A stretch of 64,000 bases of DNA, taken from the NCBI RefSeq assembly GCF_003334385.1, contig NZ_QOWN01000006.1; one strand, written 5' to 3'. Below are positions 18,827 to 44,479 of this stretch, piece after piece; position 1 is the first letter of the stretch; every line of letters starts with the position of its first letter. The notes beneath the pieces were generated by a model, which was not told the origin of the DNA, did not search any database, and saw nothing but the letters and a program-made list of their open reading frames with translations. Position numbers and translations under genes: made by a program. This stretch comes from Escherichia coli. Lineage in GTDB: Bacteria > Pseudomonadota > Gammaproteobacteria > Enterobacterales > Enterobacteriaceae.

Positions 18827-19218
18827 AGGAATATCTCCAGAAATAGGGATAACGCTACTGATAGTTAGTCATTCGTATATTAGCGGTTTTTATTGCAACT
18901 TTGAAACGTTAAAAATGGTGGGTATTCGATTTTTCTCTCGTTTTTGTCAATTCGATTGTCCACAGTTATGGTCACGCCCGTCACCAACGGCTTACCGGAT
19001 CGTTTCACAGTAAGCCCTGCGACGAAATGTGACAAAAATTACCTTTATTCAGCAAAAATGAAAATCAGCCCGCTGAATATGTAACATTAATTAACCCGAA
19101 CAATACGGGCAAAAAACATTCATGATAAAAATATTTATTGGTCATTATATTAACGCATTTAATAGCACCGTTGACGATACGCTCAAAAAACAACCACTGC
19201 TATTTTTAGCAAAGCTTA

Positions 19219-19227
19219 TGGTATACT
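19219..19227 (+). promoter_or_regulatory. Putative extended -10 element (TGgTATACT) for yecF
   Basis: Sequence motif about 60 nt upstream of yecF start; not verified. Confidence 0.4.
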
Positions 19228-19284
19228 CCGCCGCCTTAACATTTTTCACCGCAAATTTTCATTGCAACATGACGAGGAAAATAA

Positions 19285-19509
19285 ATGAGTACGCCTGATT
19301 TTTCTACTGCCGAGAATAATCAAGAACTGGCAAATGAAGTCTCCTGCCTGAAAGCGATGCTGACGCTGATGCTGCAGGCGATGGGACAAGCTGACGCGGG
19401 CCGCGTGATGTTAAAGATGGAAAAACAGCTTGCGCTGATCGAAGACGAAACCCAGGCTGCAGTATTTTCCAAAACGGTTAAGCAAATTAAACAAGCCTAC
19501 CGTCAGTAA
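19285..19509 (+). CDS. yecF: DUF2594 family protein YecF (74 aa)
   Basis: ORF translation matches YecF. Confidence 0.88.
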
Positions 19510-19512
19510 TAT

Positions 19513-19548
19513 AAAACCGGCTGATAGCGTGCCTTTCAGCCGGTTTTT
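19513..19548. terminator. Bidirectional intrinsic terminator between convergent yecF and sdiA
   Basis: Hairpin AAACCGGCTGA...TCAGCCGGTTT flanked by A/T tracts. Confidence 0.7.
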
Positions 19549-19576
19549 GCATCTGGCACGCAGGACAGAAAAGAGA

Positions 19577-20299
19577 TCAAATTAAGCCAGTAGCGGCCGC
19601 GTAACAGGCAACCTGGGTCTTATTCGGTGCATTGATTTTTTTCTGCATGTTTTTCTGATGGAAATTGACCGTATTCTCAGAGATTGACAAAATCATCGCT
19701 ATCTCTGCTGATGTCTTCCCTTCCGCCGTCCATTTCAAAATTTCTTTTTCGCGCTTGCTGAAATTCATCTCTGGCGTCATCACTATTTCATCATTTAAAC
19801 GCATCAGAGCCATCAGACTTTCGCGCACCAGTAACTGCATTTTTAATTGCAGTTCATCACTAAGAATGGGTATTTCGCGCGCGCTGCTACGGGAAAAGGA
19901 CAAAAAGCCCAGCGCCCGGTTTGGCAGCATTAAATACTGAGTGACACCGCGGCGTAAACCATGTGCGCGCGCGGCTTCCCATAACGGCTGTGCTTCGCTG
20001 AATAAGTCATCATTCCACATTAAATGGCCCTGACTAAAGTTTTCAGGGTTCAGCACCGGATCAATTGCGAGAAAGTTTTTTGCCTGATAATAACTAACCC
20101 ACGCCTCAGGGTAATTGGTGTAGAAAGCCACTTTAGGTCGCGTGAATGGTACCGGGTGGCGAACACATAACGAATAGTAATCGTACTCTAGCTGCTGAGC
20201 CTGAAGCTCTATTTCATGGTAGACCTCTTCTGCGGCCTCCATCCTCTGAAAACGCAACAGCATCGTGCGACGCCAGCTGAAAAAATCCGTATCCTGCAT
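19577..20299 (-). CDS. sdiA: LuxR-family quorum-sensing regulator SdiA (240 aa)
   Basis: Matches SdiA from MQDTDFFSWRR. Confidence 0.96.
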   Translation of the reverse strand: MQDTDFFSWRRTMLLRFQRMEAAEEVYHEIELQAQQLEYDYYSLCVRHPVPFTRPKVAFYTNYPEAWVSYYQAKNFLAIDPVLNPENFSQGHLMWNDDLFSEAQPLWEAARAHGLRRGVTQYLMLPNRALGFLSFSRSSAREIPILSDELQLKMQLLVRESLMALMRLNDEIVMTPEMNFSKREKEILKWTAEGKTSAEIAMILSISENTVNFHQKNMQKKINAPNKTQVACYAAATGLI

Positions 20300-20346
20300 A
20301 GTAAACCGCAACGCCCCTGAGAGTGAGTATCATTTATAATGATAAT

Positions 20347-20524
20347 TCAAACTATCACATAAATAAGATTTATATATAATTTATATTATTCAGGCAATGA
20401 ATTACTTTTGCAAGCCATCGCATTCTCTTATGTTATTAATGAGTTATGCTGATTTGTTAAGCTGTTTTATCACGCTTGAAATGGCGTCCCGCCCCGACAG
20501 ATGAATCGTCGGGGCTGATTTTTT
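20347..20524 (+). ncRNA. sdsN: Candidate sigmaS-dependent sRNA SdsN (178- and 137-nt forms)
   Basis: Two TATAAT -10 boxes (20335-20340, 20375-20380) give predicted starts about 178 and 137 nt upstream of a plus-strand terminator at 20491-20524, matching the published SdsN178/SdsN137 sizes adjacent to sdiA (recalled). Confidence 0.55.
20491..20524 (+). terminator. Intrinsic terminator (GCCCCGAC-loop-GTCGGGGC followed by T-tract)
   Basis: 8-bp GC-rich stem followed by TGATTTTTT on plus strand. Confidence 0.75.
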
Positions 20525-20528
20525 CTTA

Positions 20529-21281
20529 TTATTGCAGCAGAAACTTCTCGAGGAACTGGCGGGTGCGAGGCTGCTGGGGATCGGCAAATAACGCTTTTGC
20601 TGCCCCCTGCTCGACTATCCGCCCCTGGTCCATAAAAATCGCCCGGTCCGCAACATCCCGGGCAAAGCTCATTTCGTGCGTTACAATCACCATCGTGCGC
20701 TTTTCCTGCGCCAGCTGACGGATGGTGTTCAGGACTTCGCCCACCAGCTCTGGATCCAGCGCCGACGTTGGCTCGTCAAACAAAATCACCTCAGGACGCA
20801 TTGCCAGCGCACGTGCAATCGCAACACGTTGCTGTTGACCGCCAGACAAACGACGTGGATAGCTGGTTTCTTTACCGGCCAGCCCAACTTTCGCCAACAG
20901 CTCGCGAGCGCGCGCCGTGGCCTCTTCTTTCGGTTCGCCTTTGACGATCACCGGCCCTTCAATAATGTTTTCCAGCACCGTACGATGCGGAAACAAATTA
21001 AAGTTCTGGAAGACAAACCCGACGTGCTGACGCAACTGGCGAATCAGCGATTTTTGCTGACTTAATGAACGTGCAGTATCAATAGTGATATCGCTAACGG
21101 TGATAGTTCCCGCTTCCGGTTGTTCCAGCAGATTTATGCTGCGTAGCAACGTGGTTTTGCCGGAACCACTCGGACCGATAATTGCCACCACTTCGCCAGG
21201 CTTTACCTCAAGGTCGATACCGTGCAGCACCGTCTGACCGTGAAATTTTTTCACCAGGTTCTTAACTTCAATGGCACTCAT
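20529..21281 (-). CDS. tcyN: Cystine ABC transporter ATP-binding protein TcyN (YecC), 250 aa
   Basis: ABC ATPase, Walker A GPSGSGKTT; matches YecC. Confidence 0.94.
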   Translation of the reverse strand: MSAIEVKNLVKKFHGQTVLHGIDLEVKPGEVVAIIGPSGSGKTTLLRSINLLEQPEAGTITVSDITIDTARSLSQQKSLIRQLRQHVGFVFQNFNLFPHRTVLENIIEGPVIVKGEPKEEATARARELLAKVGLAGKETSYPRRLSGGQQQRVAIARALAMRPEVILFDEPTSALDPELVGEVLNTIRQLAQEKRTMVIVTHEMSFARDVADRAIFMDQGRIVEQGAAKALFADPQQPRTRQFLEKFLLQ

Positions 21282-21946
21282 TTTGGTTCTCTCTCCTGGC
21301 GATTAAGTTGATTCTCAAAATGGTTCTGCAACGTCGATAATACTGTCGCCATGATCCAGTAGATGAGCGAAGCCGCCAGGTACATGGTGAACACCTCCAG
21401 CGTGCGCGAGGTAATCAACTGCGCCTGACGGAACAGCTCCGGCACCTGAATTGTCGCGGCCAGCGACGTATCTTTTACCAGGCTGATAAAGCTGTTCGAC
21501 AGCGGCGGCAACGCCACCCGCGCCGCCTGTGGCAAAATCGCGCGACGCATAGTCTGCCATGGCGTCATACCAATACTGGCAGCTGCTTCCCACTGACCTT
21601 TATCAATAGAAGAAATGGCGGCGCGCAGCGTTTCGGCAGCATAGGCGGCAGTGTTGAGCGACAGACCAATCATTGCTGACGGAATGGGATCTAATTCGAT
21701 ACCAAACTGCGGCAGGCCGTAATAGATCATAAACAGTTGTGCGATGAGCGGTGTACCACGAAAAATAGAGATATAAAAACGCGCCAGCCAGCGCACGGGC
21801 CAGATTGGCGACAGGCGCATCAGCGCGAGAATAAACCCGAGCAGTAAGCCAAAAAACATGCCGCCGATACTGAGTTGCAGCGTATACCCAGCCCCTTTCA
21901 GCAGGAACGGCAAGGAATCAATAACCAGTTGTATACTTTCTTGCAT
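21278..21946 (-). CDS. tcyL: Cystine ABC transporter permease TcyL (YecS), 222 aa
   Basis: ORF translation matches YecS; 4-nt overlap with tcyN. Confidence 0.94.
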   Translation of the reverse strand: MQESIQLVIDSLPFLLKGAGYTLQLSIGGMFFGLLLGFILALMRLSPIWPVRWLARFYISIFRGTPLIAQLFMIYYGLPQFGIELDPIPSAMIGLSLNTAAYAAETLRAAISSIDKGQWEAAASIGMTPWQTMRRAILPQAARVALPPLSNSFISLVKDTSLAATIQVPELFRQAQLITSRTLEVFTMYLAASLIYWIMATVLSTLQNHFENQLNRQEREPK

Positions 21947-21960
21947 GAGCGTTCCCGGAG

Positions 21961-23852
<1,892 letters not shown>

Positions 23853-23939
23853 ATTCACCCCGAATGTTGTTATGTCTGTTTGCAGTGTAGAGCCATTGTT
23901 TGTAAACACAAAAACAACTCCGCTACATCTTATTCTTAT

Positions 23940-24491
23940 TTAATATATATCAGAAGAAGGCAGGCTGGAGGATTTCTGCACAAGTCCGGTACAGGTTTGG
24001 CGCTGATAGTGTTGATACTTCCGTAACGCGATGCGGTAATTGTTGGTGCTGGTGGTGGGCAGCCACGGGGCGAGGATTTCATCAAGGAAACCGTCCTGCA
24101 GCTGTTCGAGGGAAATATTTTGCTCGTGTAGATGATTCCCCAAACGGCGCAAACGAACGACATATTCACGCACCGTACCTGGGCTCATTTCAGTTTGCTC
24201 AAAAAGAAATTGCTTAAAGCCGATAATATCGAAAAAATCACTCTGCGTTTTGCAGTGTAAATCACCGCAAAATCGGCACAATGCCGCCCATGATTGTTGT
24301 TCCACTTGCCAGCCATTTTCATCAAGCAGCGTGTCCAGGCGGGAAATCTCGATTTTATTCACTATTTTGCCGTCGCGAACTAAGGTAATGCGATCGAGTA
24401 ATTTACGGCAATGCGCACAATGGGTCTGGCTGTGTTTAAAGTCTTTAAGATAGCGGCTTAATGGCCGTCTTTTCAGGTGCTGCACCATCAT
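23940..24491 (-). CDS. fliZ: Regulator FliZ (183 aa)
   Basis: Matches FliZ from MMVQHLKRRPLSRYLKDF. Confidence 0.95.
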   Translation of the reverse strand: MMVQHLKRRPLSRYLKDFKHSQTHCAHCRKLLDRITLVRDGKIVNKIEISRLDTLLDENGWQVEQQSWAALCRFCGDLHCKTQSDFFDIIGFKQFLFEQTEMSPGTVREYVVRLRRLGNHLHEQNISLEQLQDGFLDEILAPWLPTTSTNNYRIALRKYQHYQRQTCTGLVQKSSSLPSSDIY

Positions 24492-24536
24492 TAAGAACTC
24501 CTGGTAGTCAAAGTTAAAGTGCGGCATTTACTGACG

Positions 24537-25256
24537 TTATAACTTACCCAGTTTAGTGCGTAACCGTTTAATGGCCTGGCTGTGTAACTGACTGACCCGC
24601 GATTCCCCGACCTCCAGCACCGCGCCAATCTCTTTGAGATTCAGCTCTTCCTGGTAATAGAGGGTTAATACCAGTTTTTCGCGCTCCGGCAGCGTTTCGA
24701 TAGCTTCCATCACCCGCTGGCGCAGATTACTGTCCAGCAGTTGTTGTAGCGGGTTTTCTCGCTGATGATCATCAGTAACCAGTTCGATGCTATCGCCGTG
24801 CTCTTCGCGCCACTCATCGTAGGAGAAGAGCTGGCTGTTATTGGTGTCGAGCAACATTTGGCGATAATCGGCAATATCGATCCCTAAACGTTCCGCTACC
24901 TCAGTTTCCGTGGCGTTGCGGCCAAGTTCCTGCTCCAGTTGCCCTATTGCCTGTGCCACTTCACGCGCGTTGCGTCGCACGCTGCGCGGCACCCAGTCAC
25001 GGCTGCGAAGTTCATCCAGCATAGCGCCACGGATACGCTGCACTGCGTAAGTTGTAAATGCCGTTCCTTGTAGGGCGTCATAGCGTTCGACGGCATTAAG
25101 TAACCCAATGCCGCCCGCCTGTAGCAGATCGTCAAGTTCCACGCTCGCGGGCAGTCGAACCTGCAGGCGCAATGCTTCGTGACGCACCAGCGGGACATAA
25201 CGCTGCCACAGCGAGTGTTTATCCATTACACCTTCAGCGGTATAGAGTGAATTCAC
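24537..25256 (-). CDS. fliA: Flagellar sigma factor FliA (sigma28), 239 aa
   Basis: ORF translation matches FliA. Confidence 0.97.
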   Translation of the reverse strand: MNSLYTAEGVMDKHSLWQRYVPLVRHEALRLQVRLPASVELDDLLQAGGIGLLNAVERYDALQGTAFTTYAVQRIRGAMLDELRSRDWVPRSVRRNAREVAQAIGQLEQELGRNATETEVAERLGIDIADYRQMLLDTNNSQLFSYDEWREEHGDSIELVTDDHQRENPLQQLLDSNLRQRVMEAIETLPEREKLVLTLYYQEELNLKEIGAVLEVGESRVSQLHSQAIKRLRTKLGKL

Positions 25257-25281
25257 GATAAACAGCCCTGCGTTATATGAG

Positions 25282-25289
25282 TTATCGGC
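25282..25289 (-). promoter_or_regulatory. GCCGATAA -10 element of the sigma28-dependent fliA promoter (fliA also has an FlhDC class 2 promoter in this region)
   Basis: Minus-strand GCCGATAA located about 30 nt upstream of fliA start. Confidence 0.5.
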
Positions 25290-25376
25290 ATGATTATCCG
25301 TTTCTGCAGGGTTTTTAATCGGACGATTAGTGGGTGAAATGAGGGGTTATTTGGGGGTTACCGGTAAATTGCGGAC

Positions 25377-25405
25377 AGAAAAAACCCCGCCGGTGGCGGG
25401 GAAGC
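25377..25405 (-). terminator. fliC intrinsic terminator (CCCCGCC-ACCG-GCGGGG followed by T6)
   Basis: Minus-strand GC-rich hairpin followed by TTTTTTCTG. Confidence 0.8.
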
Positions 25406-25419
25406 ACGTTGCTGACAAA

Positions 25420-25545
<126 letters not shown>

Positions 25546-25575
25546 CGTCAGTCTCAGTTAATCAGGTTAGGACGA

Positions 25576-27288
25576 TTAACCCTGCAGCAGAGACAGAACC
25601 TGCTGCGGTACCTGGTTAGCTTTTGCCAGCACGGAGTTACCTGCCTGCTGAATAATCTGCGCTTTCGACATGTTGGACACTTCGGTCGCATAGTCGGCGT
25701 CCTGAATACGGGACTGCGCTTCGGACAGGTTGGTAGTGGTGTTGTTCAGGTTGGTGACTGCGGAATCCAGACGGTTCTGCACGGCACCCAGGGAAGAACG
25801 GAATTTGTCTACGGATGCGATAGCATCGTCCAGCGCTTTCAGCGGATCCGTGGTCGCTTCAGATTTACCTGTAGCTTCAGTGGTCAGAGAGCCGTCAGCC
25901 GCTTTATACAGAGCCGCGCCGTCATCATCCAGAATATTGCCGTTAGCAAATTCGTGATAAGTTTCTGTGACAGTCTTGTTGGCCGCAGTCGTCAGTTCAC
26001 CCTCAGCACCAATATTTACGGTCGCTCCACCTGTAGTAGCAGTTACTGCACCATCAGCGGCAACGTCATAAGACTGTGCGCCGTTAGCTACGGTATAAGC
26101 CTGACCGGTTAACGCAGTGTTCATATCTTCGGCGGATACCGTCGCGCCCTTAATATCCACATTGTTGCTAACCTGGGTGAAGTCAACGGTCATGCCGCTG
26201 CCGAAGGTAATCTTCGCATCAACTGCATCATGACCATTCGCACCGTTGAAAATACCGTCCAACGTTGCCGCGGCTGGGCCGCCGGCCTGGTTTTTCGTCA
26301 GGTTACCGTCAGCACCAATGTATAAAGCATCGCCATTAGTATCCGTCAGGGTACCATCGCTGGCAATTTTAACTTCCTGAGCGCTACCACCGATGGAGAT
26401 CTGAGCCGTGTTATCGCCGTTTGCTGCATAGGCTTTCAGAACATCAGCAACTTTAGTTGAGCCCGCAGTACCATCACCATTAGTAAGTGCGGTTGCGTCA
26501 AATGAATAAGACTTGCTGGTTGCGTTGTAGGTATATGCAGTAGAAGCCGCTACGCCTAACCCATTGTTTGTGCCAGCATAACCGCTAATAGTGCTGCCGC
26601 CACTAACGCTAGCCAGCACATCGGTAGCTGTTGCTGCATTAAAGGTAGTAACAGTAGATTTAGTCCAGGTGCTATTGCCACTGACAACTGCACTTTGGGA
26701 GAAGCCCGCAGCGGTCAGATCTGCTTCAGTGGCTTTTGCATTATCAACAGCGCCTTTACCGTTGACGTTGAAGCTGGTCAGCTTCAGTGTAGAAGAGTCG
26801 ATTTTTTTCAGGTCAATCGTGATGGTTTCACCATCATTTGCGCCCACCTGAATTTTCATTGAACCGTCTTTGGACAACACATTCACGCCATTGAACTGGG
26901 TCTGACCAGATACGCGGTCAATTTCATCAAGACGAGATTTGATTTCGTCCTGGATGGAGTCCAAGTCAGAATCGGAGTTAGTACCGGTAGTGGCCTGAAC
27001 CGTCAGTTCACGGATACGCTGTAAGTTGTTGTTGATTTCGGACAGCGCGCCTTCGGTGGTCTGCGCAACGGAAATACCGTCGTTGGCGTTACGTGCAGCC
27101 TGAGTCAGGCCTTTAATGTTAGAAGTAAAACGGTTAGCAATCGCCTGACCCGCGGCGTCATCCTTCGCGCTGTTAATACGCAAGCCAGAAGACAGACGCT
27201 CGATAGAACTCGACAGCGCAGACTGGTTCTTGTTGATATTATTTTGAGTGATCAGCGAGAGGCTGTTGGTATTAATGACTTGTGCCAT
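25576..27288 (-). CDS. fliC: Flagellin FliC (570 aa) with conserved termini and a variable central domain
   Basis: N-terminus MAQVINTNSLSLITQNNINKNQSALSSSIERLSSGLRINSAKDDAAGQAIANRF and C-terminus ...VLAKANQVPQQVLSLLQG are canonical; central region is Thr/Ala/Gly/Ser-rich. Confidence 0.97.
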   Translation of the reverse strand: MAQVINTNSLSLITQNNINKNQSALSSSIERLSSGLRINSAKDDAAGQAIANRFTSNIKGLTQAARNANDGISVAQTTEGALSEINNNLQRIRELTVQATTGTNSDSDLDSIQDEIKSRLDEIDRVSGQTQFNGVNVLSKDGSMKIQVGANDGETITIDLKKIDSSTLKLTSFNVNGKGAVDNAKATEADLTAAGFSQSAVVSGNSTWTKSTVTTFNAATATDVLASVSGGSTISGYAGTNNGLGVAASTAYTYNATSKSYSFDATALTNGDGTAGSTKVADVLKAYAANGDNTAQISIGGSAQEVKIASDGTLTDTNGDALYIGADGNLTKNQAGGPAAATLDGIFNGANGHDAVDAKITFGSGMTVDFTQVSNNVDIKGATVSAEDMNTALTGQAYTVANGAQSYDVAADGAVTATTGGATVNIGAEGELTTAANKTVTETYHEFANGNILDDDGAALYKAADGSLTTEATGKSEATTDPLKALDDAIASVDKFRSSLGAVQNRLDSAVTNLNNTTTNLSEAQSRIQDADYATEVSNMSKAQIIQQAGNSVLAKANQVPQQVLSLLQG

Positions 27289-27364
27289 GATTCGTTATCC
27301 TATATTGCAAGTCGTTGATTACGTATTGGGTTTCCACCCGTCGGCTCAATCGCCGTCAACCCTG

Positions 27365-27391
27365 TTATCGTCTGTCGTAAAACAACCTTTA
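27365..27391 (-). promoter_or_regulatory. fliC sigma28 promoter TAAAGGTT-N11-GACGATAA
   Basis: Minus-strand match to sigma28 consensus about 80-105 nt upstream of fliC start. Confidence 0.75.
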
Positions 27392-27483
27392 GAATTTTTT
27401 TCACAAACAGCCATTTTTTGTTAGTCGCCGAAATACTCTTTTCTCTGCCCCTTATTCCCGCTATTAAAAAAAACAATTAAACG

Positions 27484-27510
27484 TAAACTTTGCGCAATTC
27501 AGGCCGATAA
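27484..27510 (+). promoter_or_regulatory. fliD sigma28 promoter TAAACTTT-N11-GCCGATAA
   Basis: Near-perfect sigma28 consensus about 45-70 nt upstream of fliD start. Confidence 0.8.
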
Positions 27511-27553
27511 CCCCGGTATTCGTTTTACGTGTCGAAAGATAAAAGGAAATCGC

Positions 27554-28960
27554 ATGGCAAGTATTTCATCGCTGGGAGTCGGGTCAGGCCTGGATTTAAG
27601 TTCAATCCTTGATAGCCTCACCGCCGCGCAAAAAGCGACGCTAACCCCTATTTCAAATCAGCAATCGTCGTTTACCGCTAAACTTAGCGCCTACGGTACG
27701 CTGAAAAGCGCGTTGACGACTTTCCAGACCGCCAATACTGCATTGTCTAAAGCCGATCTTTTTTCCGCCACCAGCACTACCAGCAGCACCACCGCGTTCA
27801 GTGCCACCACCGCGGGTAACGCCATCGCCGGGAAATACACCATCAGCGTCACCCATCTGGCGCAGGCGCAAACCCTGACCACGCGCACCACCAGAGATGA
27901 TACGAAAACGGCGATCGCCACCAGCGACAGTAAACTCACCATTCAACAAGGCGGCGACAAAGATCCGATTACCATTGATATCAGCGCGGCTAACTCGTCG
28001 TTAAGCGGGATCCGTGATGCCATCAACAACGCAAAAGCGGGCGTAAGTGCGAGCATCATTAACGTGGGTAACGGTGAATATCGTCTGTCAGTCACATCAA
28101 ATGACACCGGCCTTGACAATGCGATGACACTCTCGGTCAGCGGTGATGATGCGCTACAAAGTTTTATGGGCTATGACGCCAGTGCCAGCAGCAACGGCAT
28201 GGAAGTCTCGGTCGCCGCCCAGAATGCGCAGCTGACGGTCAACAACGTCGCCATTGAGAACAGCAGCAACACCATCAGCGACGCGCTGGAAAACATCACC
28301 CTGAACCTGAACGATGTCACCACGGGCAACCAGACGCTGACCATCACTCAGGACACCTCCAAAGCGCAAACGGCGATTAAAGACTGGGTGAATGCCTATA
28401 ACTCGCTAATAGATACCTTCAGCAGCCTGACCAAATACACCGCCGTAGATGCGGGAGCTGATAGCCAAAGCTCTAGCAATGGCGCACTGCTCGGCGACTC
28501 CACGCTGCGGACGATTCAGACGCAGTTGAAGTCGATGCTGAGTAATACCGTCAGTTCTTCCAGCTATAAAACGTTGGCGCAGATTGGTATCACGACCGAT
28601 CCCAGCGATGGCAAACTGGAACTGGATGCCGACAAACTCACCGCTGCACTGAAAAAAGATGCCAGCGGCGTAGGTGCATTGATTGTTGGCGATGGTAAAA
28701 AAACCGGCATCACAACCACCATCGGCAGCAACCTGACCAGTTGGCTTTCGACAACGGGCATTATTAAAGCCGCTACCGATGGCGTTAGTAAGACTCTGAA
28801 TAAATTAACTAAAGACTACAACGCCGCCAGCGATCGCATTGATGCGCAGGTCGCGCGCTACAAAGAACAATTTACCCAACTGGACGTTTTAATGACCTCG
28901 TTAAACAGCACCAGCAGCTACTTAACGCAGCAGTTCGAAAACAACAGTAATTCCAAGTAA
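27554..28960 (+). CDS. fliD: Flagellar filament cap protein FliD (468 aa)
   Basis: ORF translation matches FliD. Confidence 0.96.
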   Translation: MASISSLGVGSGLDLSSILDSLTAAQKATLTPISNQQSSFTAKLSAYGTLKSALTTFQTANTALSKADLFSATSTTSSTTAFSATTAGNAIAGKYTISVTHLAQAQTLTTRTTRDDTKTAIATSDSKLTIQQGGDKDPITIDISAANSSLSGIRDAINNAKAGVSASIINVGNGEYRLSVTSNDTGLDNAMTLSVSGDDALQSFMGYDASASSNGMEVSVAAQNAQLTVNNVAIENSSNTISDALENITLNLNDVTTGNQTLTITQDTSKAQTAIKDWVNAYNSLIDTFSSLTKYTAVDAGADSQSSSNGALLGDSTLRTIQTQLKSMLSNTVSSSSYKTLAQIGITTDPSDGKLELDADKLTAALKKDASGVGALIVGDGKKTGITTTIGSNLTSWLSTTGIIKAATDGVSKTLNKLTKDYNAASDRIDAQVARYKEQFTQLDVLMTSLNSTSSYLTQQFENNSNSK

Positions 28961-28984
28961 TCAATATTCATCGGGAGACAGGTC

Positions 28985-29395
28985 ATGTACGCGGCAAAAG
29001 GCACCCAGGCCTATGCACAAATTGGCGTCGAAAGCGCCGTAATGAGCGCCAGCCAGCAGCAGCTGGTCACCATGCTATTTGATGGAGTGCTGAGCGCACT
29101 GGTTAGAGCGCGCCTGTTTATGCAGGACAACAATCAGCAAGGCAAAGGCGTCTCTTTGTCAAAAGCGATCAACATCATTGAGAACGGACTGCGGGTGAGT
29201 CTTGATGAAGATAGCAAAGACGAATTAACCCAAAACTTGATTGCTCTTTATAGCTATATGGTCAGGCGTTTGCTGCAAGCCAATTTACGCAACGATGTCT
29301 CCGCAGTCGAAGAAGTGGAAGCATTAATGCGCAATATTGCCGATGCCTGGAAAGAGTCGTTACTCTCCCCTTCTTTGATTCAGGACCCAGTCTGA
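28985..29395 (+). CDS. fliS: Flagellin-specific chaperone FliS (136 aa)
   Basis: ORF translation matches FliS. Confidence 0.96.
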
Positions 29396-29760
29396 TGAAC
29401 CATGCACCGCATTTGTATTTCGCCTGGCAACAACTCGTCGAAAAAAGCCAGCTCATGTTACGCCTGGCAACGGAAGAACAATGGGACGAACTCATCGCCA
29501 GCGAAATGGCGTATGTGAATGCGGTGCAGGAGATAGCACACCTGACTGAAGAGGTTGCCCCGTCCACCACGATGCAGGAGCAGCTCCGCCCGATGCTGCG
29601 CCTGATTCTCGACAACGAAAGCAAGGTAAAGCAGTTATTACAGATTCGTATGGATGAACTGGCGAAACTGGTCGGTCAGTCATCGGTGCAAAAATCGGTG
29701 TTAAGTGCCTATGGCGATCAGGGCGGCTTTGTGCTGGCTCCGCAAGATAACTTCTCGTGA
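29395..29760 (+). CDS. fliT: FliD chaperone / anti-FlhDC factor FliT (121 aa)
   Basis: ORF translation matches FliT; start overlaps fliS stop. Confidence 0.95.
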
Positions 29761-29837
29761 ATCTTAACGAGCTAATGGTTCGCGAATAATCCGATTACGG
29801 CTACGCTTCTAATGTTCCCCTTGAATGGAGTCGAAGA

Positions 29838-31325
29838 ATGCGTAATCCCACGCTGTTACAATGTTTTCACTGGTATTACCCGGAAGGCGGTAAGCTCTGG
29901 CCTGAACTGGCCGAGCGCGCCGACGGTTTTAATGATATTGGTATCAATATGGTCTGGTTGCCGCCCGCCTATAAAGGCGCATCGGGCGGGTATTCGGTCG
30001 GCTACGACTCCTATGATTTATTTGATTTAGGCGAGTTTGATCAGAAAGGCAGCATCCCTACTAAATATGGCGATAAAGTACAATTGCTGGCCGCCATTGA
30101 CGCCCTGAAACGTAATGACATTGCGGTGCTGTTGGACGTGGTAGTCAACCACAAAATGGGCGCGGATGAAAAAGAAGCTATTCGCGTGCAGCGTGTAAAT
30201 GCTGACGACCGTACGCAAATTGATGAAGAAATCATTGAGTGCGAAGGCTGGACGCGTTACACCTTCCCCGCCCGTGCCGGGCAATACTCACAGTTTATCT
30301 GGGATTTCAAATGTTTTAGCGGTATCGACCATATCGAAAACCCTGATGAAGATGGCATATTTAAAATTGTTAACGACTACACCGGCGAAGGCTGGAACGA
30401 TCAGGTTGATGATGAATTAGGTAATTTCGATTATCTGATGGGCGAGAATATCGATTTTCGCAATCATGCCGTGACGGAAGAGATTAAATACTGGGCGCGC
30501 TGGGTGATGGAACAAACGCAATGCGACGGTTTTCGTCTTGATGCGGTCAAACATATACCGGCATGGTTTTATAAAGAGTGGATCGAACACGTACAAGAAG
30601 TTGCACCAAAGCCGCTGTTTATTGTGGCGGAGTACTGGTCGCATGAAGTCGATAAACTGCAAACGTATATTGATCAGGTGGAAGGCAAAACCATGCTGTT
30701 CGATGCGCCGCTGCAGATGAAATTCCATGAAGCATCGCGCATGGGCCGCGACTACGACATGACGCAGATTTTCACGGGTACATTAGTGGAAGCCGATCCT
30801 TTCCACGCCGTGACGCTCGTTGCCAATCACGACACCCAACCGTTGCAAGCCCTCGAAGCGCCGGTCGAACCGTGGTTTAAACCGCTGGCGTATGCCTTAA
30901 TTTTGTTGCGGGAAAATGGCGTTCCTTCGGTATTCTATCCGGACCTCTACGGTGCGCATTACGAAGATGTCGGCGGTGACGGGCAAACCTATCCGATAGA
31001 TATGCCAATAATCGAACAGCTTGATGAGTTAATTCTCGCCCGTCAGCGTTTCGCCCACGGTGTACAGACATTATTTTTCGACCATCCGAACTGCATTGCC
31101 TTTAGCCGCAGTGGCACTGACGAATATCCCGGCTGCGTGGTGGTCATGTCGAACGGGGATGATGGCGAAAAAACCATTAATCTGGGAGAGAATTACGGCA
31201 ATAAAACCTGGCGTGATTTTCTGGGGAACCGGCAAGAGAGCGTAGTAACCGACGAAAACGGTGAAGCGACCTTCTTTTGCAACGGCGGCAGCGTCAGCGT
31301 GTGGGTTATCGAAGAGGTGATTTAA
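29838..31325 (+). CDS. amyA: Cytoplasmic alpha-amylase AmyA (495 aa)
   Basis: ORF translation matches AmyA; GH13 motifs. Confidence 0.96.
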
Positions 31326-31331
31326 ATTCAT

Positions 31332-31350
31332 CCCCGGCGGCAAGCCGGGG
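31332..31350. terminator. Bidirectional intrinsic terminator between convergent amyA and yedD
   Basis: Hairpin CCCCGGC-GGCAA-GCCGGGG. Confidence 0.7.
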
Positions 31351-31358
31351 AGATTTCA

Positions 31359-31775
31359 TTACGGCAGTGGCGTCGGTAACGGCGCTTTATCCAGCGCGGC
31401 GGCACACTCTGCCGTCGGGCGATCCACACGCTCCATCGTCATACCATCGTACTCAATGGTGTTACCGTCACGCTCAACCTCGTATAGCTCACGTTTTACG
31501 GTAACGTTAGTGAGATCATCAGACATCAATGTCAACTTACCCGGCACGGCAATCACCCGCTGCCACTGACGGCAATCAAGAGTATCGCCCTCTTTAGTGA
31601 CAATCAGGCTGCCTATCGCTTCCGGGCTGACCAGCGCACGTTGCGGCCCTTTGGTCTGCCAGTAGCCCGCCAGCCAGTCCGGCGCGGGGGTTTTCACGAC
31701 ATTGTTATAGTTTTCGACTTCGGCACAGCCCGCCAGCAACATGAGCGCGCCTGCAATTGCGAGTTTTTTCATCAT
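31359..31775 (-). CDS. yedD: Lipoprotein YedD
   Basis: ORF translation matches YedD; lipobox LAGC. Confidence 0.9.
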   Translation of the reverse strand: MMKKLAIAGALMLLAGCAEVENYNNVVKTPAPDWLAGYWQTKGPQRALVSPEAIGSLIVTKEGDTLDCRQWQRVIAVPGKLTLMSDDLTNVTVKRELYEVERDGNTIEYDGMTMERVDRPTAECAAALDKAPLPTPLP

Positions 31776-31958
31776 TCGTCCTGCATGAGAAGAAAAGAGG
31801 ATTGTGGCATTAAAGCCCTGATGTCGCCAGCCTTTACAGGTTCAGAGAGAAATTTGATCTAACTATTATTTTTGTGAATTATTACCCCGAAAATAAATTT
31901 GCATGATGTATGATTCGCGACTCTTGTTTCAAACCTTCTGAGTTCAGAGGCTACATTC

Positions 31959-33164
31959 ATGTCATGGCAGCAATTCAAACACGCCTGGTTGATTAAATTC
32001 TGGGCACCCATCCCTGCGGTCATCGCGGCGGGTATTCTCTCCACTTACTATTTTGGCATTACTGGCACCTTTTGGGCTGTCACGGGTGAATTTACCCGTT
32101 GGGGCGGCCAGCTCCTGCAGCTGTTTGGCGTCCATGCTGAAGAGTGGGGTTATTTTAAAATTATCCATCTGGAAGGATCGCCATTAACCCGCATCGACGG
32201 GATGATGATCCTCGGCATGTTTGGCGGCTGCTTTGCCGCAGCGCTGTGGGCCAACAATGTCAAACTGCGCATGCCACGCAGCCGTATCCGCATTATGCAG
32301 GCCATTATTGGCGGTATTATCGCTGGTTTTGGCGCGCGTCTGGCAATGGGCTGTAACCTGGCGGCGTTCTTTACCGGTATTCCTCAGTTCTCGCTGCATG
32401 CCTGGTTCTTTGCCATCGCCACTGCCATTGGTTCATGGTTTGGCGCACGCTTTACCCTGCTGCCCATCTTCCGTATTCCCGTGAAAATGCAGAAAGTTTC
32501 TGCCGCCTCACCGCTGACGCAAAAACCGGATCAGGCGCGGCGTCGTTTTCGTCTCGGGATGCTGGTCTTTTTCGGCATGCTGGGCTGGGCGCTGCTCACG
32601 GCGATGAACCAACCCAAACTGGGGCTGGCAATGCTGTTTGGCGTCGGCTTTGGTTTACTGATTGAACGTGCGCAAATCTGCTTTACTTCGGCGTTCCGCG
32701 ATATGTGGATCACCGGACGTACCCACATGGCGAAAGCAATCATTATTGGTATGGCGGTGAGTGCCATCGGGATCTTCAGTTACGTACAGTTAGGTGTTGA
32801 ACCCAAAATCATGTGGGCGGGACCAAACGCGGTAATTGGTGGTTTACTGTTTGGTTTTGGCATCGTGCTGGCAGGCGGCTGCGAAACCGGTTGGATGTAC
32901 CGCGCGGTAGAAGGTCAGGTGCACTACTGGTGGGTCGGTCTGGGCAATGTGATCGGCTCAACCATTCTGGCGTATTACTGGGATGATTTCGCTCCGGCGC
33001 TGGCCACCGACTGGGACAAAATCAACCTGCTGAAAACCTTTGGCCCGATGGGTGGCCTGCTGGTGACATATTTGCTGTTGTTTACTGCGCTGATGTTGAT
33101 TATCGGCTGGGAAAAACGCTTCTTCCGCCGTGCGGCACCGCAGACTGCTAAGGAGATCGCATGA
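31959..33164 (+). CDS. yedE: Inner membrane protein YedE (YeeE/YedE family; selenium/thiosulfate-related transporter), 401 aa
   Basis: ORF translation matches YedE. Confidence 0.93.
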   Translation: MSWQQFKHAWLIKFWAPIPAVIAAGILSTYYFGITGTFWAVTGEFTRWGGQLLQLFGVHAEEWGYFKIIHLEGSPLTRIDGMMILGMFGGCFAAALWANNVKLRMPRSRIRIMQAIIGGIIAGFGARLAMGCNLAAFFTGIPQFSLHAWFFAIATAIGSWFGARFTLLPIFRIPVKMQKVSAASPLTQKPDQARRRFRLGMLVFFGMLGWALLTAMNQPKLGLAMLFGVGFGLLIERAQICFTSAFRDMWITGRTHMAKAIIIGMAVSAIGIFSYVQLGVEPKIMWAGPNAVIGGLLFGFGIVLAGGCETGWMYRAVEGQVHYWWVGLGNVIGSTILAYYWDDFAPALATDWDKINLLKTFGPMGGLLVTYLLLFTALMLIIGWEKRFFRRAAPQTAKEIA

Positions 33165-33394
33165 AAAATATCATTCCTGATTACCGTCTTGATATGGTGG
33201 GTGAACCCTGCCCTTATCCGGCAGTCGCAACCCTTGAGGCGATGCCGCAGTTAAAAAAAGGTGAGATCCTGGAAGTGGTGAGCGACTGTCCGCAGTCGAT
33301 CAATAATATTCCACTGGATGCTCGTAATCACGGCTATACGGTGCTGGATATTCAGCAAGACGGGCCGACCATTCGTTATTTAATTCAGAAGTAA
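33161..33394 (+). CDS. yedF: TusA-like sulfurtransferase-fold protein YedF (77 aa)
   Basis: ORF translation matches YedF with CPxP motif (GEPCPYP); 4-nt overlap with yedE. Confidence 0.93.
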   Translation: MKNIIPDYRLDMVGEPCPYPAVATLEAMPQLKKGEILEVVSDCPQSINNIPLDARNHGYTVLDIQQDGPTIRYLIQK

Positions 33395-33502
33395 TCCCTC
33401 ATTCCCGCTGTGGCCAACAGCGGGAATATCGTTGCCTCTGTACCACATAGATTTTACCCGCCCCCTCTCCTATTCTTTTCAGTGTGCTCTCAGGAGGTTG
33501 CT

Positions 33503-34171
33503 ATGTGTGGACGCTTTGCCCAATCCCAAACGCGTGAAGATTACCTTGCGCTTCTCGCGGAAGATATTGAACGCGATATTCCCTATGATCCCGAACCCAT
33601 TGGCAGATACAACGTCGCGCCGGGAACCAAAGTTCTTCTGCTCAGTGAACGTGATGAACACCTTCATCTGGATCCGGTTTTCTGGGGATATGCTCCCGGA
33701 TGGTGGGATAAACCGCCGCTGATTAACGCCCGCGTAGAAACTGCGGCCACCAGTCGTATGTTTAAACCGCTCTGGCAACATGGTCGGGCAATCTGTTTTG
33801 CCGATGGCTGGTTTGAGTGGAAAAAAGAAGGCGACAAAAAACAGCCTTATTTTATCTATCGTGCTGACGGACAACCTGTTTTTATGGCCGCGATAGGTAG
33901 CACACCGTTTGAGCGCGGTGACGAAGCCGAAGGATTTTTAATTGTCACTGCAGCAGCAGACCAGGGTCTGGTAGATATTCATGACCGCCGCCCGCTGGTA
34001 CTGTCGCCAGAAGCTGCGCGGGAATGGATGCGGCAAGAGATTGGCGGTAAAGAAGCATCAGAAATTGCTACCAACGGCTGTGTGCCAGCAAACCAGTTCA
34101 CCTGGCACCCGGTATCGCGCGCGGTAGGTAATGTCAAAAACCAGGGCGCGGAGTTAATTCAACCTGTTTGA
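33503..34171 (+). CDS. yedK: SOS-response-associated peptidase YedK (abasic-site processing, HMCES ortholog), 222 aa
   Basis: Matches YedK from MCGRFAQSQTREDYL (catalytic Cys2). Confidence 0.94.
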   Translation: MCGRFAQSQTREDYLALLAEDIERDIPYDPEPIGRYNVAPGTKVLLLSERDEHLHLDPVFWGYAPGWWDKPPLINARVETAATSRMFKPLWQHGRAICFADGWFEWKKEGDKKQPYFIYRADGQPVFMAAIGSTPFERGDEAEGFLIVTAAADQGLVDIHDRRPLVLSPEAAREWMRQEIGGKEASEIATNGCVPANQFTWHPVSRAVGNVKNQGAELIQPV

Positions 34172-34563
34172 TAAGCCAGGAGACTATTGATCAATAATAC
34201 TGCGTCATAAGAAATCTCTATTAGACAAAGTAGACGCTCCTTCCACATGCGCCACAAGAAACCTCTATTCCAGTGACACAATTACGCCTGATTATTTCCC
34301 TAGCCCGGAATATGAATAAAAACATCAACAAAGATTAAATTATTCAAACGTTACTGTTGCGTCTGCGGTCGTAACAACATCCGACGTGGTGATGTGTATC
34401 AAATGAGGCCTCTGATGATCAGAGGGTTTATCGCGTATACGGATCGTGGATGGCAGAAAACTTTCAGAATCAGGTTTCCATTTTAAACCAGAAATTGAGT
34501 GAGTTTGCCCCATCCATGCCCCACGCGGTGAGATCGGATGTAATTAACAACAGGTTACAAAAC

Positions 34564-34878
34564 CTACACCTGCATGCTCATCACTTCCTGATACGCCGCC
34601 ACCAGCTTATTACGCACCTGAATCCCCATTTGCATAGAAACTGAGGCTTTTTGCATATCGGTCATCACATCGTTTAACGCCACGCCGGGTTCACCGAGAG
34701 TGAATTTTTCTGCCTGCGTGCGGGCAGCTGTTTGTGTATCACTAATGCGATCGAGCGCGGCGTGCAGCTGCCCGGCAAAACTAATGGTCGGTTGCGGCAG
34801 TGATTCCTGCGCACGCGCACTCATCGCCGTAGCCTGTAACTGGCTGATAACCCCTTCAATCCCCTGTATCGCTGACAT
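34564..34878 (-). CDS. fliE: Flagellar hook-basal body protein FliE (104 aa)
   Basis: Matches FliE from [15 protein letters not shown]. Confidence 0.96.
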
Positions 34879-35092
34879 TCTCGTCTCCCGGATAATTTCT
34901 GGTAGCAAAGCCTACCAGTAAGTCAATAAGACAAAGGCGCTAAATAACAACAAAAAAACGGGTTTATTGGCGGATAGAAAAAAACGAAAGCACAAATAAT
35001 GGGAGCGTCAATTTTTCGAGTTTGCTGACCCGGGAGTGAGTCTTGTTCCACTTTGCCAATAACGCCGTCCATAATCAGCCACGAGGTGCGCG
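34879..35092. promoter_or_regulatory. Divergent fliE / fliF class 2 (FlhD4C2-dependent) promoter region
   Basis: Intergenic region between divergent fliE and fliFGHIJK; known class 2 architecture. Confidence 0.6.
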
Positions 35093-38417
<3,325 letters not shown>

Positions 38418-38418
<1 letters not shown>

Positions 38419-39791
38419 TGACCACGCGCCTGACTCGCTGGCTAACCACGCTGGATAACTTTGAAGCCAAAATGGCGCAGTTGCCTGCGGTACGTCGCTA
38501 TGGGCGATTAACCCGCGCTACCGGGCTGGTGCTGGAAGCCACCGGATTACAATTGCCGCTCGGCGCAACCTGTGTCATTGAACGCCAGAACGGCAGCGAA
38601 ACGCACGAAGTAGAAAGCGAAGTCGTTGGCTTTAACGGTCAACGGCTGTTTTTAATGCCGCTGGAGGAAGTGGAAGGTGTCCTGCCCGGCGCGCGGGTTT
38701 ATGCCAAAAACATTTCGGCTGAAGGACTGCAAAGCGGCAAGCAGTTGCCGCTCGGTCCGGCGTTATTAGGTCGCGTTCTGGACGGCAGCGGTAAGCCGCT
38801 CGATGGCCTGCCCTCCCCCGATACGACGGAAACCGGTGCGCTGATTACCCCGCCATTTAACCCGTTGCAACGTACACCGATTGAACATGTGCTGGACACC
38901 GGCGTGCGCCCAATCAATGCCCTGCTTACCGTTGGGCGTGGGCAGCGTATGGGGCTGTTTGCCGGGTCCGGCGTTGGTAAAAGTGTGCTGCTGGGGATGA
39001 TGGCACGTTACACCCGCGCCGATGTCATTGTCGTGGGTTTGATTGGTGAACGCGGACGCGAAGTAAAAGATTTTATTGAGAATATCCTCGGTGCCGAAGG
39101 GCGTGCACGCTCCGTGGTGATTGCCGCTCCGGCGGATGTCTCTCCGCTTCTGCGAATGCAAGGTGCCGCCTATGCCACGCGCATTGCCGAAGATTTTCGC
39201 GATCGTGGTCAGCATGTGTTGCTGATTATGGACTCCCTCACCCGCTACGCGATGGCCCAGCGTGAAATTGCGCTGGCGATTGGCGAACCACCCGCCACCA
39301 AAGGTTATCCCCCGTCGGTGTTTGCCAAATTACCGGCACTGGTCGAGCGTGCCGGAAATGGCATTAGCGGCGGCGGATCGATTACCGCGTTTTATACCGT
39401 GCTCACCGAGGGCGATGACCAGCAGGACCCCATTGCCGACTCCGCGCGGGCAATCCTCGACGGTCACATTGTGCTGTCTCGCCGACTGGCGGAAGCCGGG
39501 CACTATCCGGCTATCGATATTGAAGCGTCGATCAGCCGCGCAATGACGGCGTTGATCAGCGAGCAACATTACGCGCGAGTGCGCACCTTCAAACAGCTGT
39601 TGTCGAGTTTTCAGCGTAACCGAGATCTGGTTAGCGTCGGCGCGTATGCCAAAGGCAGCGATCCGATGCTCGATAAAGCCATCGCCCTGTGGCCGCAGCT
39701 GGAGGGCTATTTGCAACAAGGCATTTTTGAACGCGCGGACTGGGAAGCGTCTCTCCAGGGGCTGGAGCGTATTTTCCCGACAGTGTCATAA
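38418..39791 (+). CDS. fliI: Flagellum-specific ATPase FliI (457 aa)
   Basis: ORF translation matches FliI; Walker A GSGVGKS. Confidence 0.97.
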
Positions 39792-39809
39792 CCCAGGAGA
39801 TAACGGCAG

Positions 39810-40253
39810 ATGGCAGAACATGGCGCGCTGGCGACCCTGAAAGATCTGGCAGAAAAAGAGGTAGAGGATGCCGCGCGCCTGCTGGGTGAAATGCGTCGCG
39901 GGTGTCAGCAGGCGGAAGAACAGCTCAAAATGCTGATCGATTATCAGAATGAATATCGCAATAACCTCAACAGCGATATGAGTGCCGGGATGACCAGCAA
40001 CCGCTGGATCAACTATCAGCAGTTTATCCAGACGCTGGAAAAAGCCATTACTCAGCATCGCCAGCAACTTAATCAGTGGACGCAGAAAGTTGACATTGCC
40101 CTGAACAGCTGGCGAGAAAAGAAACAACGTTTGCAGGCCTGGCAGACACTGCAGGAACGGCAATCCACGGCGGCACTGCTTGCAGAAAACCGCCTCGATC
40201 AGAAAAAGATGGATGAGTTCGCCCAGCGCGCCGCCATGAGGAAACCTGAATGA
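39810..40253 (+). CDS. fliJ: Flagellar export protein FliJ (147 aa)
   Basis: ORF translation matches FliJ. Confidence 0.96.
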
Positions 40254-41377
40254 TTCGCTTAGCGCCCTTAATTACCGCCGACGTTGACACCACCACATTG
40301 CCTGGCGGCAAAGCCAGCGATGCTGCACAAGATTTTCTCGCGTTGTTGAGCGAAGCATTAGCAGGCGAGACAACTACCGACAAAGCGGCCCCCCAGTTGC
40401 TGGTGGCAACAGATAAGCCCACGACAAAAGGCGAGCCGCTGGTCAGCGAGATTCTTGCCGATGCGCAACAAGCGGATTTACTGATCCCTGTGGATGAAAC
40501 ACCGCCTGTCATCAACGACGAACAATCCACATCAACACCATTAACCACCGCTCAAACGATGACGATGGCTGCGGTGGCTGGCAACAATACGGCAAAAGAC
40601 GAAAAAGCGGATGATCTGAATGAAGACGTCACCGCAAGCCTGAGCGCCCTTTTTGCGATGTTGCCGGGTTTTGACAATACGCCCAAAGTGACTGATGTGC
40701 CGTCAACCGTGTTACCGGCAGAGAAACCAACGCTCTTCACAAAACTGACTTCTGCGCAACTCACAACAGCACAGCCTGATGATGCCCCCGGCACGCCAGC
40801 TCAGCCATTAACACCGCTGGTAGCAGAAGCCCAGAGTAAAGCGGAAGTCATCAGCACACCTTCACCGGTGACCGCTGCCGCCAGCCCGCTAATCACTTCA
40901 CACCAGACACAGCCACTGCCCACCGTCGCCGCGCCTGTGTTGAGTGCACCGCTGGGTTCTCACGAATGGCAACAATCATTAAGCCAGCATATTTCGCTGT
41001 TCACCCGCCAGGGGCAACAAAGTGCAGAGTTGCGTCTGCACCCGCAGGATTTAGGTGAAGTGCAAATCTCCCTCAAAGTGGATGATAACCAGGCGCAAAT
41101 CCAGATGGTTTCACCGCATCAACACGTACGCGCCGCCCTGGAAGCAGCGCTTCCGGTACTGCGAACGCAGCTGGCCGAAAGTGGCATTCAGTTAGGGCAA
41201 AGCAACATCAGTGGCGAAAGCTTTAGTGGTCAGCAGCAGGCCGCTTCCCAACAACAGCAAAGCCAACGCACAGTAAACCATGAACCTCTGGCGGGGGAAG
41301 ACGACGATACGCTTCCGGTTCCCGTCTCTTTACAAGGGCGTGTAACAGGCAACAGCGGCGTTGATATTTTCGCCTAA
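40250..41377 (+). CDS. fliK: Flagellar hook-length control protein FliK (375 aa)
   Basis: ORF translation matches FliK; Pro/Thr/Ala-rich central region. Confidence 0.96.
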
Positions 41378-41481
41378 CGTCAGAGATAGCACCGTAATCC
41401 GCGTCTTTTCCCCGCTTTGTTGCGCTCAAGACGCAGGATAATTAGCCGATAAGCAGTAGCGACACAGGAAGACCGCAACAC

Positions 41482-41946
41482 ATGACTGATTACGCGATAA
41501 GCAAGAAAAGCAAGCGATCGCTTTGGATCCCGATTCTGGTATTCATTACCCTCGCGGCCTGTGCCAGCGCAGGTTACAGCTACTGGCATTCGCATCAGGT
41601 TGCCGCTGACGACAAAGCGCAGCAACGCGTCGTACCCTCCCCGGTCTTCTACGCGCTGGATACCTTCACGGTCAATTTGGGCGATGCGGATCGCGTGCTT
41701 TATATCGGCATAACCCTGCGCCTGAAAGATGAAGCTACCCGCTCGCGGCTGAGTGAGTATTTGCCGGAAGTCCGTAGCCGTTTGCTGTTACTGTTTTCGC
41801 GTCAGGATGCTGCCGTACTGGCGACAGAAGAAGGCAAGAAAAACCTGATTGCCGAGATTAAAACCACGCTTTCCACCCCGCTTGTTGCCGGGCAACCGAA
41901 ACAGGATGTCACCGACGTGCTGTATACCGCTTTTATTCTGCGATAA
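41482..41946 (+). CDS. fliL: Flagellar basal body-associated protein FliL (154 aa)
   Basis: ORF translation matches FliL. Confidence 0.96.
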
Positions 41947-41950
41947 CGAC

Positions 41951-42955
41951 ATGGGCGATAGTATTCTTTCTCAAGCTGAAATTGATGCGCTGTTGAATGG
42001 TGACAGCGAAGTCAAAGACGAACCGACAGCCAGTGTTAGCGGCGAAAGTGACATTCGTCCGTACGATCCGAATACCCAACGACGGGTTGTGCGCGAACGT
42101 TTGCAGGCGCTGGAAATCATTAATGAGCGCTTTGCCCGCCATTTTCGTATGGGGCTGTTCAACCTGCTGCGTCGTAGCCCGGATATAACCGTCGGGGCCA
42201 TCCGCATTCAGCCGTACCATGAATTTGCCCGCAACCTGCCGGTGCCGACCAACCTGAACCTTATCCATCTGAAACCGCTGCGCGGCACAGGGCTGGTGGT
42301 GTTTTCACCGAGTCTGGTGTTTATCGCCGTGGATAACCTGTTTGGCGGCGATGGACGCTTCCCGACCAAAGTGGAAGGTCGCGAGTTTACCCATACCGAA
42401 CAGCGCGTCATCAACCGCATGTTAAAGCTGGCGCTTGAAGGCTATAGCGACGCCTGGAAGGCGATTAATCCGCTGGAAGTTGAGTACGTGCGTTCGGAAA
42501 TGCAGGTGAAATTTACCAATATCACCACCTCGCCGAACGACATTGTGGTTAACACGCCGTTCCATGTGGAGATTGGCAACCTGACCGGCGAATTTAATAT
42601 CTGTCTGCCATTCAGCATGATCGAGCCGCTACGGGAATTGTTGGTTAACCCGCCGCTGGAAAACTCGCGTAATGAAGATCAGAACTGGCGCGATAACCTG
42701 GTGCGCCAGGTGCAGCATTCACAGCTGGAGCTGGTCGCCAACTTTGCCGATATCTCGCTACGCCTGTCGCAGATTTTAAAACTGAAACCCGGCGACGTCC
42801 TGCCGATAGAAAAACCCGATCGCATCATCGCCCATGTTGACGGCGTCCCGGTGCTGACCAGTCAGTACGGCACTCTCAACGGTCAGTATGCGTTACGGAT
42901 AGAACATTTGATTAACCCGATTTTAAATTCTCTGAACGAGGAACAGCCCAAATGA
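41951..42955 (+). CDS. fliM: Flagellar motor switch protein FliM (334 aa)
   Basis: Matches FliM from MGDSILSQAEIDALLNGD. Confidence 0.97.
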   Translation: MGDSILSQAEIDALLNGDSEVKDEPTASVSGESDIRPYDPNTQRRVVRERLQALEIINERFARHFRMGLFNLLRRSPDITVGAIRIQPYHEFARNLPVPTNLNLIHLKPLRGTGLVVFSPSLVFIAVDNLFGGDGRFPTKVEGREFTHTEQRVINRMLKLALEGYSDAWKAINPLEVEYVRSEMQVKFTNITTSPNDIVVNTPFHVEIGNLTGEFNICLPFSMIEPLRELLVNPPLENSRNEDQNWRDNLVRQVQHSQLELVANFADISLRLSQILKLKPGDVLPIEKPDRIIAHVDGVPVLTSQYGTLNGQYALRIEHLINPILNSLNEEQPK

Positions 42956-43365
42956 GTGACATGAATAATCCGGCCGATGACAACAACGGCGCAATGGACG
43001 ATCTGTGGGCTGAAGCGTTGAGCGAACAAAAATCAACCAGCAGCAAAAGCGCTGCCGACGCGGTGTTCCAGCAATTTGGCGGTGGTGATGTCAGCGGAAC
43101 GTTGCAGGATATCGACCTGATAATGGATATTCCGGTCAAGCTGACCGTCGAGCTGGGCCGTACGCGGATGACCATCAAAGAGCTGTTGCGTCTGACGCAA
43201 GGGTCCGTCGTGGCGCTGGACGGTCTGGCGGGCGAACCACTGGATATTCTGATCAACGGTTATTTAATCGCCCAGGGCGAAGTGGTGGTCGTTGCCGATA
43301 AATATGGCGTGCGGATCACCGATATCATTACTCCGTCTGAGCGAATGCGTCGCCTGAGCCGTTAG
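42952..43365 (+). CDS. fliN: Flagellar motor switch protein FliN (137 aa)
   Basis: ORF translation matches FliN. Confidence 0.97.
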   Translation: MSDMNNPADDNNGAMDDLWAEALSEQKSTSSKSAADAVFQQFGGGDVSGTLQDIDLIMDIPVKLTVELGRTRMTIKELLRLTQGSVVALDGLAGEPLDILINGYLIAQGEVVVVADKYGVRITDIITPSERMRRLSR

Positions 43366-43367
43366 TG

Positions 43368-43733
43368 ATGAATAACCACGCTACTGTGCAATCTTCCACG
43401 CCGGTTTCTGCTGCGCCACTGCTGCAGGTCAGCGGCGCACTCATCGCCATTATTGCCCTGATCCTCGCTGCTGCCTGGCTGGTAAAACGGTTGGGATTTG
43501 CCCCGAAACGCACTGGCGTTAACGGTCTGAAAATTAGCGCCAGTGCTTCGCTGGGCGCGCGTGAACGGGTTGTGGTGGTCGATGTGGAAGATACACGGCT
43601 GGTGCTCGGCGTTACCGCAGGGCAAATCAATCTGCTGCATAAACTTCCCCCTTCAGCACCAACAGAAGAGATACCGCAGACCGATTTTCAGTCGGTCATG
43701 AAAAATTTGCTTAAGCGTAGTGGGAGATCCTGA
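43368..43733 (+). CDS. fliO: Flagellar biosynthesis protein FliO (121 aa)
   Basis: Matches FliO from [10 protein letters not shown]. Confidence 0.93.
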
Positions 43734-44470
43734 TGCGTCGTTTGTTGTCTGTCGCACCTGTCCTTCTCTGGCTGGTTACGCCCCTCGCCTTCGCGCAACT
43801 GCCGGGTATCACCAGCCAGCCGCTGCCTGGCGGTGGACAAAGCTGGTCGCTCCCGGTGCAGACGCTGGTGTTCATCACCTCGTTGACGTTTATTCCGGCA
43901 ATTTTACTGATGATGACCAGTTTCACCCGCATCATCATTGTTTTTGGTTTATTGCGTAACGCGCTGGGAACGCCCTCCGCGCCACCTAACCAGGTATTGC
44001 TGGGGCTGGCACTATTTTTGACCTTTTTTATTATGTCACCGGTGATCGATAAAATTTATGTCGATGCGTACCAGCCATTCAGCGAAGAGAAAATATCAAT
44101 GCAGGAGGCGCTGGAAAAAGGGGCGCAGCCGCTACGTGAGTTTATGCTGCGTCAGACCCGTGAGGCAGATTTAGGGTTGTTTGCCAGACTAGCGAATACC
44201 GGCCCGTTGCAGGGACCTGAAGCCGTGCCGATGCGCATTTTGCTCCCGGCCTACGTGACCAGCGAGTTGAAAACCGCATTTCAGATAGGCTTCACGATTT
44301 TCATTCCTTTTTTGATTATCGACCTGGTGATTGCCAGCGTGTTGATGGCATTGGGGATGATGATGGTCCCCCCCGCCACCATTGCTCTGCCCTTTAAACT
44401 GATGCTGTTTGTACTGGTGGATGGTTGGCAATTGCTGGTCGGTTCGCTGGCGCAGAGCTTTTACAGCTAG
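43733..44470 (+). CDS. fliP: Flagellar export apparatus protein FliP (245 aa)
   Basis: ORF translation matches FliP. Confidence 0.97.
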
Positions 44471-44479
44471 AGAGGCAAA

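Follow-up and report, generated by a model that had tools for sequence, protein, structure and literature searches.

The flagellin gene contained in a 64,000-nucleotide stretch of Escherichia coli DNA (hereafter ‘the window’) was found to be of antigen type H32, and it is, in our view, close to certain from the sequence that the window carries an intact chromosomal fliC with the H32 allele in an E. coli that has a K-12-like (phylogroup A) backbone. An initial sequence-only reading had pointed to a non-K-12 H antigen and had left the type unnamed, and comparison with the labelled sequences of a curated flagellin database (supplement of PMC3578835), which served as H references, now provides the name: the encoded protein shows complete identity, over 570 of 570 residues, with the H32 reference gi|12697206, that is, with the flagellin of the O114:H32 type strain K10, which is given as identical to AAP13322 in the Mascot file of PMC3578835. 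By sequence, the H type thus is H32. The exact protein is also represented by the UniRef entry Q9AL29_ECOLX, and it equals WP_001507509.1 of E. coli 1303, a strain published as O70:H32 (PMC4384141) and typed with SerotypeFinder (PMC5422975), the two genes differing at four nucleotides, all of them synonymous. According to the same reading, the variable centre of this gene would be routine rather than notable if it matched a common reference H allele exactly. Such a match to a common reference H32 allele is what was obtained, and the finding is therefore a routine one.

The gene corresponds to a single intact open reading frame of 570 codons plus stop (Table 1). Its product contains the Pfam domains Flagellin_N (PF00669; residues 5–140, E=1.4e-46) and Flagellin_C (PF00700; residues 483–568, E=5e-32) as well as a match to the enterobacterial ‘FliC’ family (residues 347–473, E=2.1e-31), and it scores 729 bits, compared with a cut-off of 619, over its full length (residues 1–570) against NCBIfam NF005953, ‘FliC/FljB family flagellin’. 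Downstream the gene is flanked by fliA and fliZ, and upstream by the divergent genes fliD, fliS and fliT; the order fliZ-fliA-fliC/fliD-fliS-fliT is the same in the window, in K-12 MG1655 and in O157 Sakai. Judged by (i) the presence of both helical domains, (ii) the NCBIfam score and (iii) its position in the locus, where a sigma-28 promoter precedes it, the protein is a FliC/FljB family flagellin. A tblastn search of the 64-kb window revealed no second flagellin gene besides fliC.

Table 1. Location of fliC, its parts and its surroundings in the window.
Feature	Position	Strand	Basis or remark
Segment ~2% diverged from K-12 MG1655, holds fliC	19019..64000	.	Mismatch density versus MG1655; gene positions
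fliC 3′ UTR	25379..25572	-	Homologous to K-12 stretch annotated as small RNA FliX; alignment; Rfam
fliC CDS, flagellin of antigen type H32	25576..27288	-	Open reading frame; Pfam; NCBIfam NF005953; 100% protein identity to H32 reference
Conserved C-terminal part, residues 479–570 plus stop	25576..25854	-	DNA homology to K-12 resumes at 25854
Variable central block, residues 153–478	25855..26832	-	No megablast homology to K-12; specifies H32 antigen
Conserved N-terminal part, residues 1–152	26833..27288	-	DNA homology to K-12 fliC up to 26833
Sigma-28 (FliA) type promoter of fliC, TAAAGGTT-N11-GACGATAA	27365..27391	-	Read from sequence, located by script

When the protein was aligned with the flagellins of K-12 (H48, 498 residues) and Sakai (H7, 585 residues) and with an H30-type flagellin, and identity was scored per 30-residue bin, the two ends and the centre behaved quite differently. 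Relative to H48 and H7, the bins covering residues 1–150 exhibit 90–100% identity and those covering residues 481–570 exhibit 83–100%, with the conserved C-terminal part being identical to K-12 at the protein level, while the bins inside residues 181–480 reach only 3–40%. Thr, Ser, Ala, Gly and Asn together make up 60.7% of residues 171–478, compared with 46% of the N-terminal and 43% of the C-terminal end. The open reading frame, the Pfam matches and the alignment hence agree with what had been read from the letters alone, namely a flagellin of 570 residues with conserved ends and a Thr/Ser/Ala/Gly/Asn-rich central domain which belongs neither to H48, the type of K-12, nor to H7. The span that had been proposed for this domain, 25990–26900 (residues ~130–433), falls into the right gene and mostly into the right block, but is shifted by 70–135 bases toward the N-terminal end; it takes in ~23 conserved codons and omits ~45 variable ones.

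The conserved N- and C-terminal helices of flagellins (D0/D1) pack into the core of the filament and carry the signals for polymerisation as well as for export by way of the flagellar type III system; the conserved D0/D1 parts also hold the surface recognised by TLR5. The central block, in turn, folds into the outer, surface-exposed domains which carry the H epitopes. In the H32 flagellin, the terminal helices would accordingly be expected to form the D0/D1 core of the filament, with polymerisation being predicted, and the central residues ~153–478 would form outer domains on the filament surface that define the H antigen.

The H30 reference is the only close relative of the window protein, and among the 53 E. 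coli H antigens just four related pairs are listed, H30/H32 being one of them (PMC7018530). It is nonetheless very improbable that the gene encodes the H30 antigen instead of H32. The H30 flagellin likewise comprises 570 residues and shares 96% protein identity, and an H30-like centre (~92% DNA identity) occurs in 155 complete genomes including that of strain CE-O153H30; however, the window protein shows 21 residue differences from the H30 reference (gi|30059894; PMC3578835) and none from the H32 reference, and the gene differs at 105 nucleotides from that of CE-O153H30 and at only four from that of the O70:H32 strain 1303. With 21 amino acid differences for H30 versus zero for H32, the H30 assignment was rejected at the level of the sequence. 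As only 21–22 of 570 residues distinguish the H30 from the H32 protein, serological cross-reaction between the two would be plausible. The most improbable reading of all is that the central domain constitutes a novel or mosaic H antigen absent from the reference alleles: even though the centre is unrelated to those of H48 and H7 and is only 54% identical to that of H37, this reading was rejected by the exact, full-length match to the protein of the H32 type strain, and many sequenced genomes share the central DNA at 100% identity. The H37 reference (PMC3578835 supplement) shares 54% identity with H32 over the central block and 75% overall, which makes it a third, more remote relative of the H30/H32 pair.

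The H32 allele is a standard, fairly common and widely distributed one, being present in ~1% of complete E. coli genomes. Of 5,426 complete E. coli genomes searched by megablast for the central region, 67, strain 1303 included, were found to contain it at an identity of at least 99%, and many at 100%. A second group, comprising the 155 genomes to which CE-O153H30 belongs, contains a central region that is ~92% identical, and beyond these two groups nothing in the 5,426 genomes covers the region at megablast level. At least 1,000 contigs of the public collection encode the exact protein. For the matching strains CFSAN064036, WP7-S17-ESBL-04, N18-04097, STB20-1, 1916D6 and 210221272, the literature yielded no useful serotype record. 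We also observed that NZ_CP109924.1, named ‘O125ac:K+:H10 strain C 236-04A’, bears an H30-like fliC centre (92.3% identical to the window); either this entry is mislabelled, or a second flagellin locus sets the H10 phenotype.

The comparison of the window with K-12 MG1655 bears on how the H48/H32 difference may have arisen. Over positions 1–19018 only five mismatches were counted, leaving aside an absent IS1, while the well-aligned 1-kb bins between 19019 and the end of the window contain 4–37 mismatches per kb, mostly 10–35, corresponding to ~2% overall. The switch is abrupt and occurs in the uvrY-yecU intergenic region, with fliC located ~6.5 kb inside the diverged tract. It is this step, from five mismatches before 19019 to ~2% divergence after it, that leads us to place fliC in a recombination tract. 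We thus regard it as highly probable, based on mismatch density, that fliC and the whole fliD-fliR region form part of a recombination tract which spans at least 45 kb, has its left edge at 19019 and extends past the end of the window, and, jointly with this, that the H48/H32 difference stems from a single large replacement rather than from an exchange of the fliC centre alone. Large homologous recombination is the usual route by which H types pass from one E. coli lineage to another. The horizontal exchange that the sequence-only reading had invoked for the central part of the protein is thereby supported, in that fliC lies within a tract of other ancestry than K-12 in a backbone that is near-identical elsewhere. 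In a comparison of the tract made with regard to the recipient, the window and K-12 turned out to be about equally distant from O157 Sakai. The arrangement of the fliC region is itself common: several sequenced isolates, of wastewater, chicken and human origin, share the 25 kb around fliC at ~100% identity. Relative to K-12, the tract represents a clean textbook example of H-antigen reshuffling, and not a new phenomenon.

Several other differences from K-12 were registered in the window. At ~2738–2745 it is devoid of the IS1 element (IS1H) located upstream of flhD/flhDC in MG1655, with flanks almost identical to those of K-12. Between yedK and fliE (34230–34294), both yedL and the K-12 pseudogene yedN are absent, a 64-bp remnant being all that aligns, and yedK almost directly adjoins fliE. 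O157 Sakai has espR effector-like genes at this spot; considering the absence of yedL/yedN here together with the espR genes in Sakai, the yedK-fliE site is therefore a variable islet. Finally, an uninterrupted open reading frame of 362 residues (55951–57039, plus strand) occupies the position of the K-12 pseudogene yedS, and the stretch 56088–57024 has no alignment to K-12 at megablast level.

The GC content and codon usage of the centre versus the flanks had been put forward as a check for recombination. The overall GC content of the variable block is unremarkable (0.503, compared with 0.495 for the window). GC3 is lower in the variable block (0.448) than in the conserved N-terminal (0.566) and C-terminal (0.663) parts, the mean over 46 genes of the window being 0.560 (s.d. 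0.058). Because K-12 H48 (0.272) and H7 (0.361) exhibit the same dip, and in fact a stronger one, a low central GC3 is a general property of the variable regions of E. coli fliC and not peculiar to the H32 allele.

Transcription of fliC would start between fliC and fliD, from the FliA (sigma-28) promoter (Table 1). The intergenic region comprises 265 bp and differs from its K-12 counterpart at two bases, neither of which falls within the sigma-28-type element. A search with TAAAGTTT-N10-12-GCCGATAA, which we take to be the strict sigma-28 consensus, gave no match, since two bases of the fliC promoter deviate from it. On the opposite side of the gene, the 3′ UTR corresponds to the segment directly downstream of fliC where the K-12 annotation places fliX, and it ends in a GC-rich hairpin followed by a T-run (about 25379–25401). 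It also contains REP-type palindromes at 25414–25511, and Rfam reported ES036 (CssrF) with 38.1 bits, just over the gathering score of 37.6, and naRNA4 with 41.9 bits, under the gathering score of 59.5; these matches at 25414–25511 probably reflect repeat elements rather than dedicated RNA genes. Relative to strain 1303, ~15 substitutions are clustered in 25276–25654, most of the other 7.7 kb compared being identical. Three of them fall into the last 80 bases of fliC and are all synonymous, and the others are located in the 3′ UTR; the cluster looks like a small mosaic patch.

The strain can now be labelled H32 by sequence, which aids serotype prediction and epidemiological typing. The significance of the assignment is limited to annotation: H32 is a long-established H type with a reference sequence that has been publicly available since about 2001, and no new surface antigen has been encountered.

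Among known flagellins, that of E. coli H32 (K10 O114:H32; Q9AL29_ECOLX) exhibits no protein difference from the window. The O70:H32 strain 1303 shares the chromosomal locus and is set apart by the four synonymous substitutions in fliC and the small cluster of substitutions in the 3′ UTR. H30 has equal length and architecture, with 96% protein identity overall and ~92% DNA identity in the central region, and differs by 21–22 amino acid substitutions, 20 of which lie in residues 199–478 and one at residue 106, a further one at residue 357 being found in the copy of CE-O153H30. K-12 H48 and O157 H7 share the gene position, the promoter and the neighbours with the window, and match its protein completely or almost completely over ~150 residues at the N-terminus and ~90 at the C-terminus; their centres, however, do not align with that of the window at the DNA level, and their lengths are 498 and 585 residues, respectively, compared with 570. 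A search of the structure database with the H32 central block found no solved structure of an H32 or H30 flagellin, and returned matches to the central parts of the PDB flagellin chains 7SN7, 7SQJ, 7SQD and 7SN4, which are labelled only ‘Flagellin’. The central block alone matches residues 151–453 of 7SN7 with E=2.8e-21, albeit at low similarity, and by sequence the H32 centre is a divergent representative of the outer-domain lineage to which these solved flagellin chains belong.
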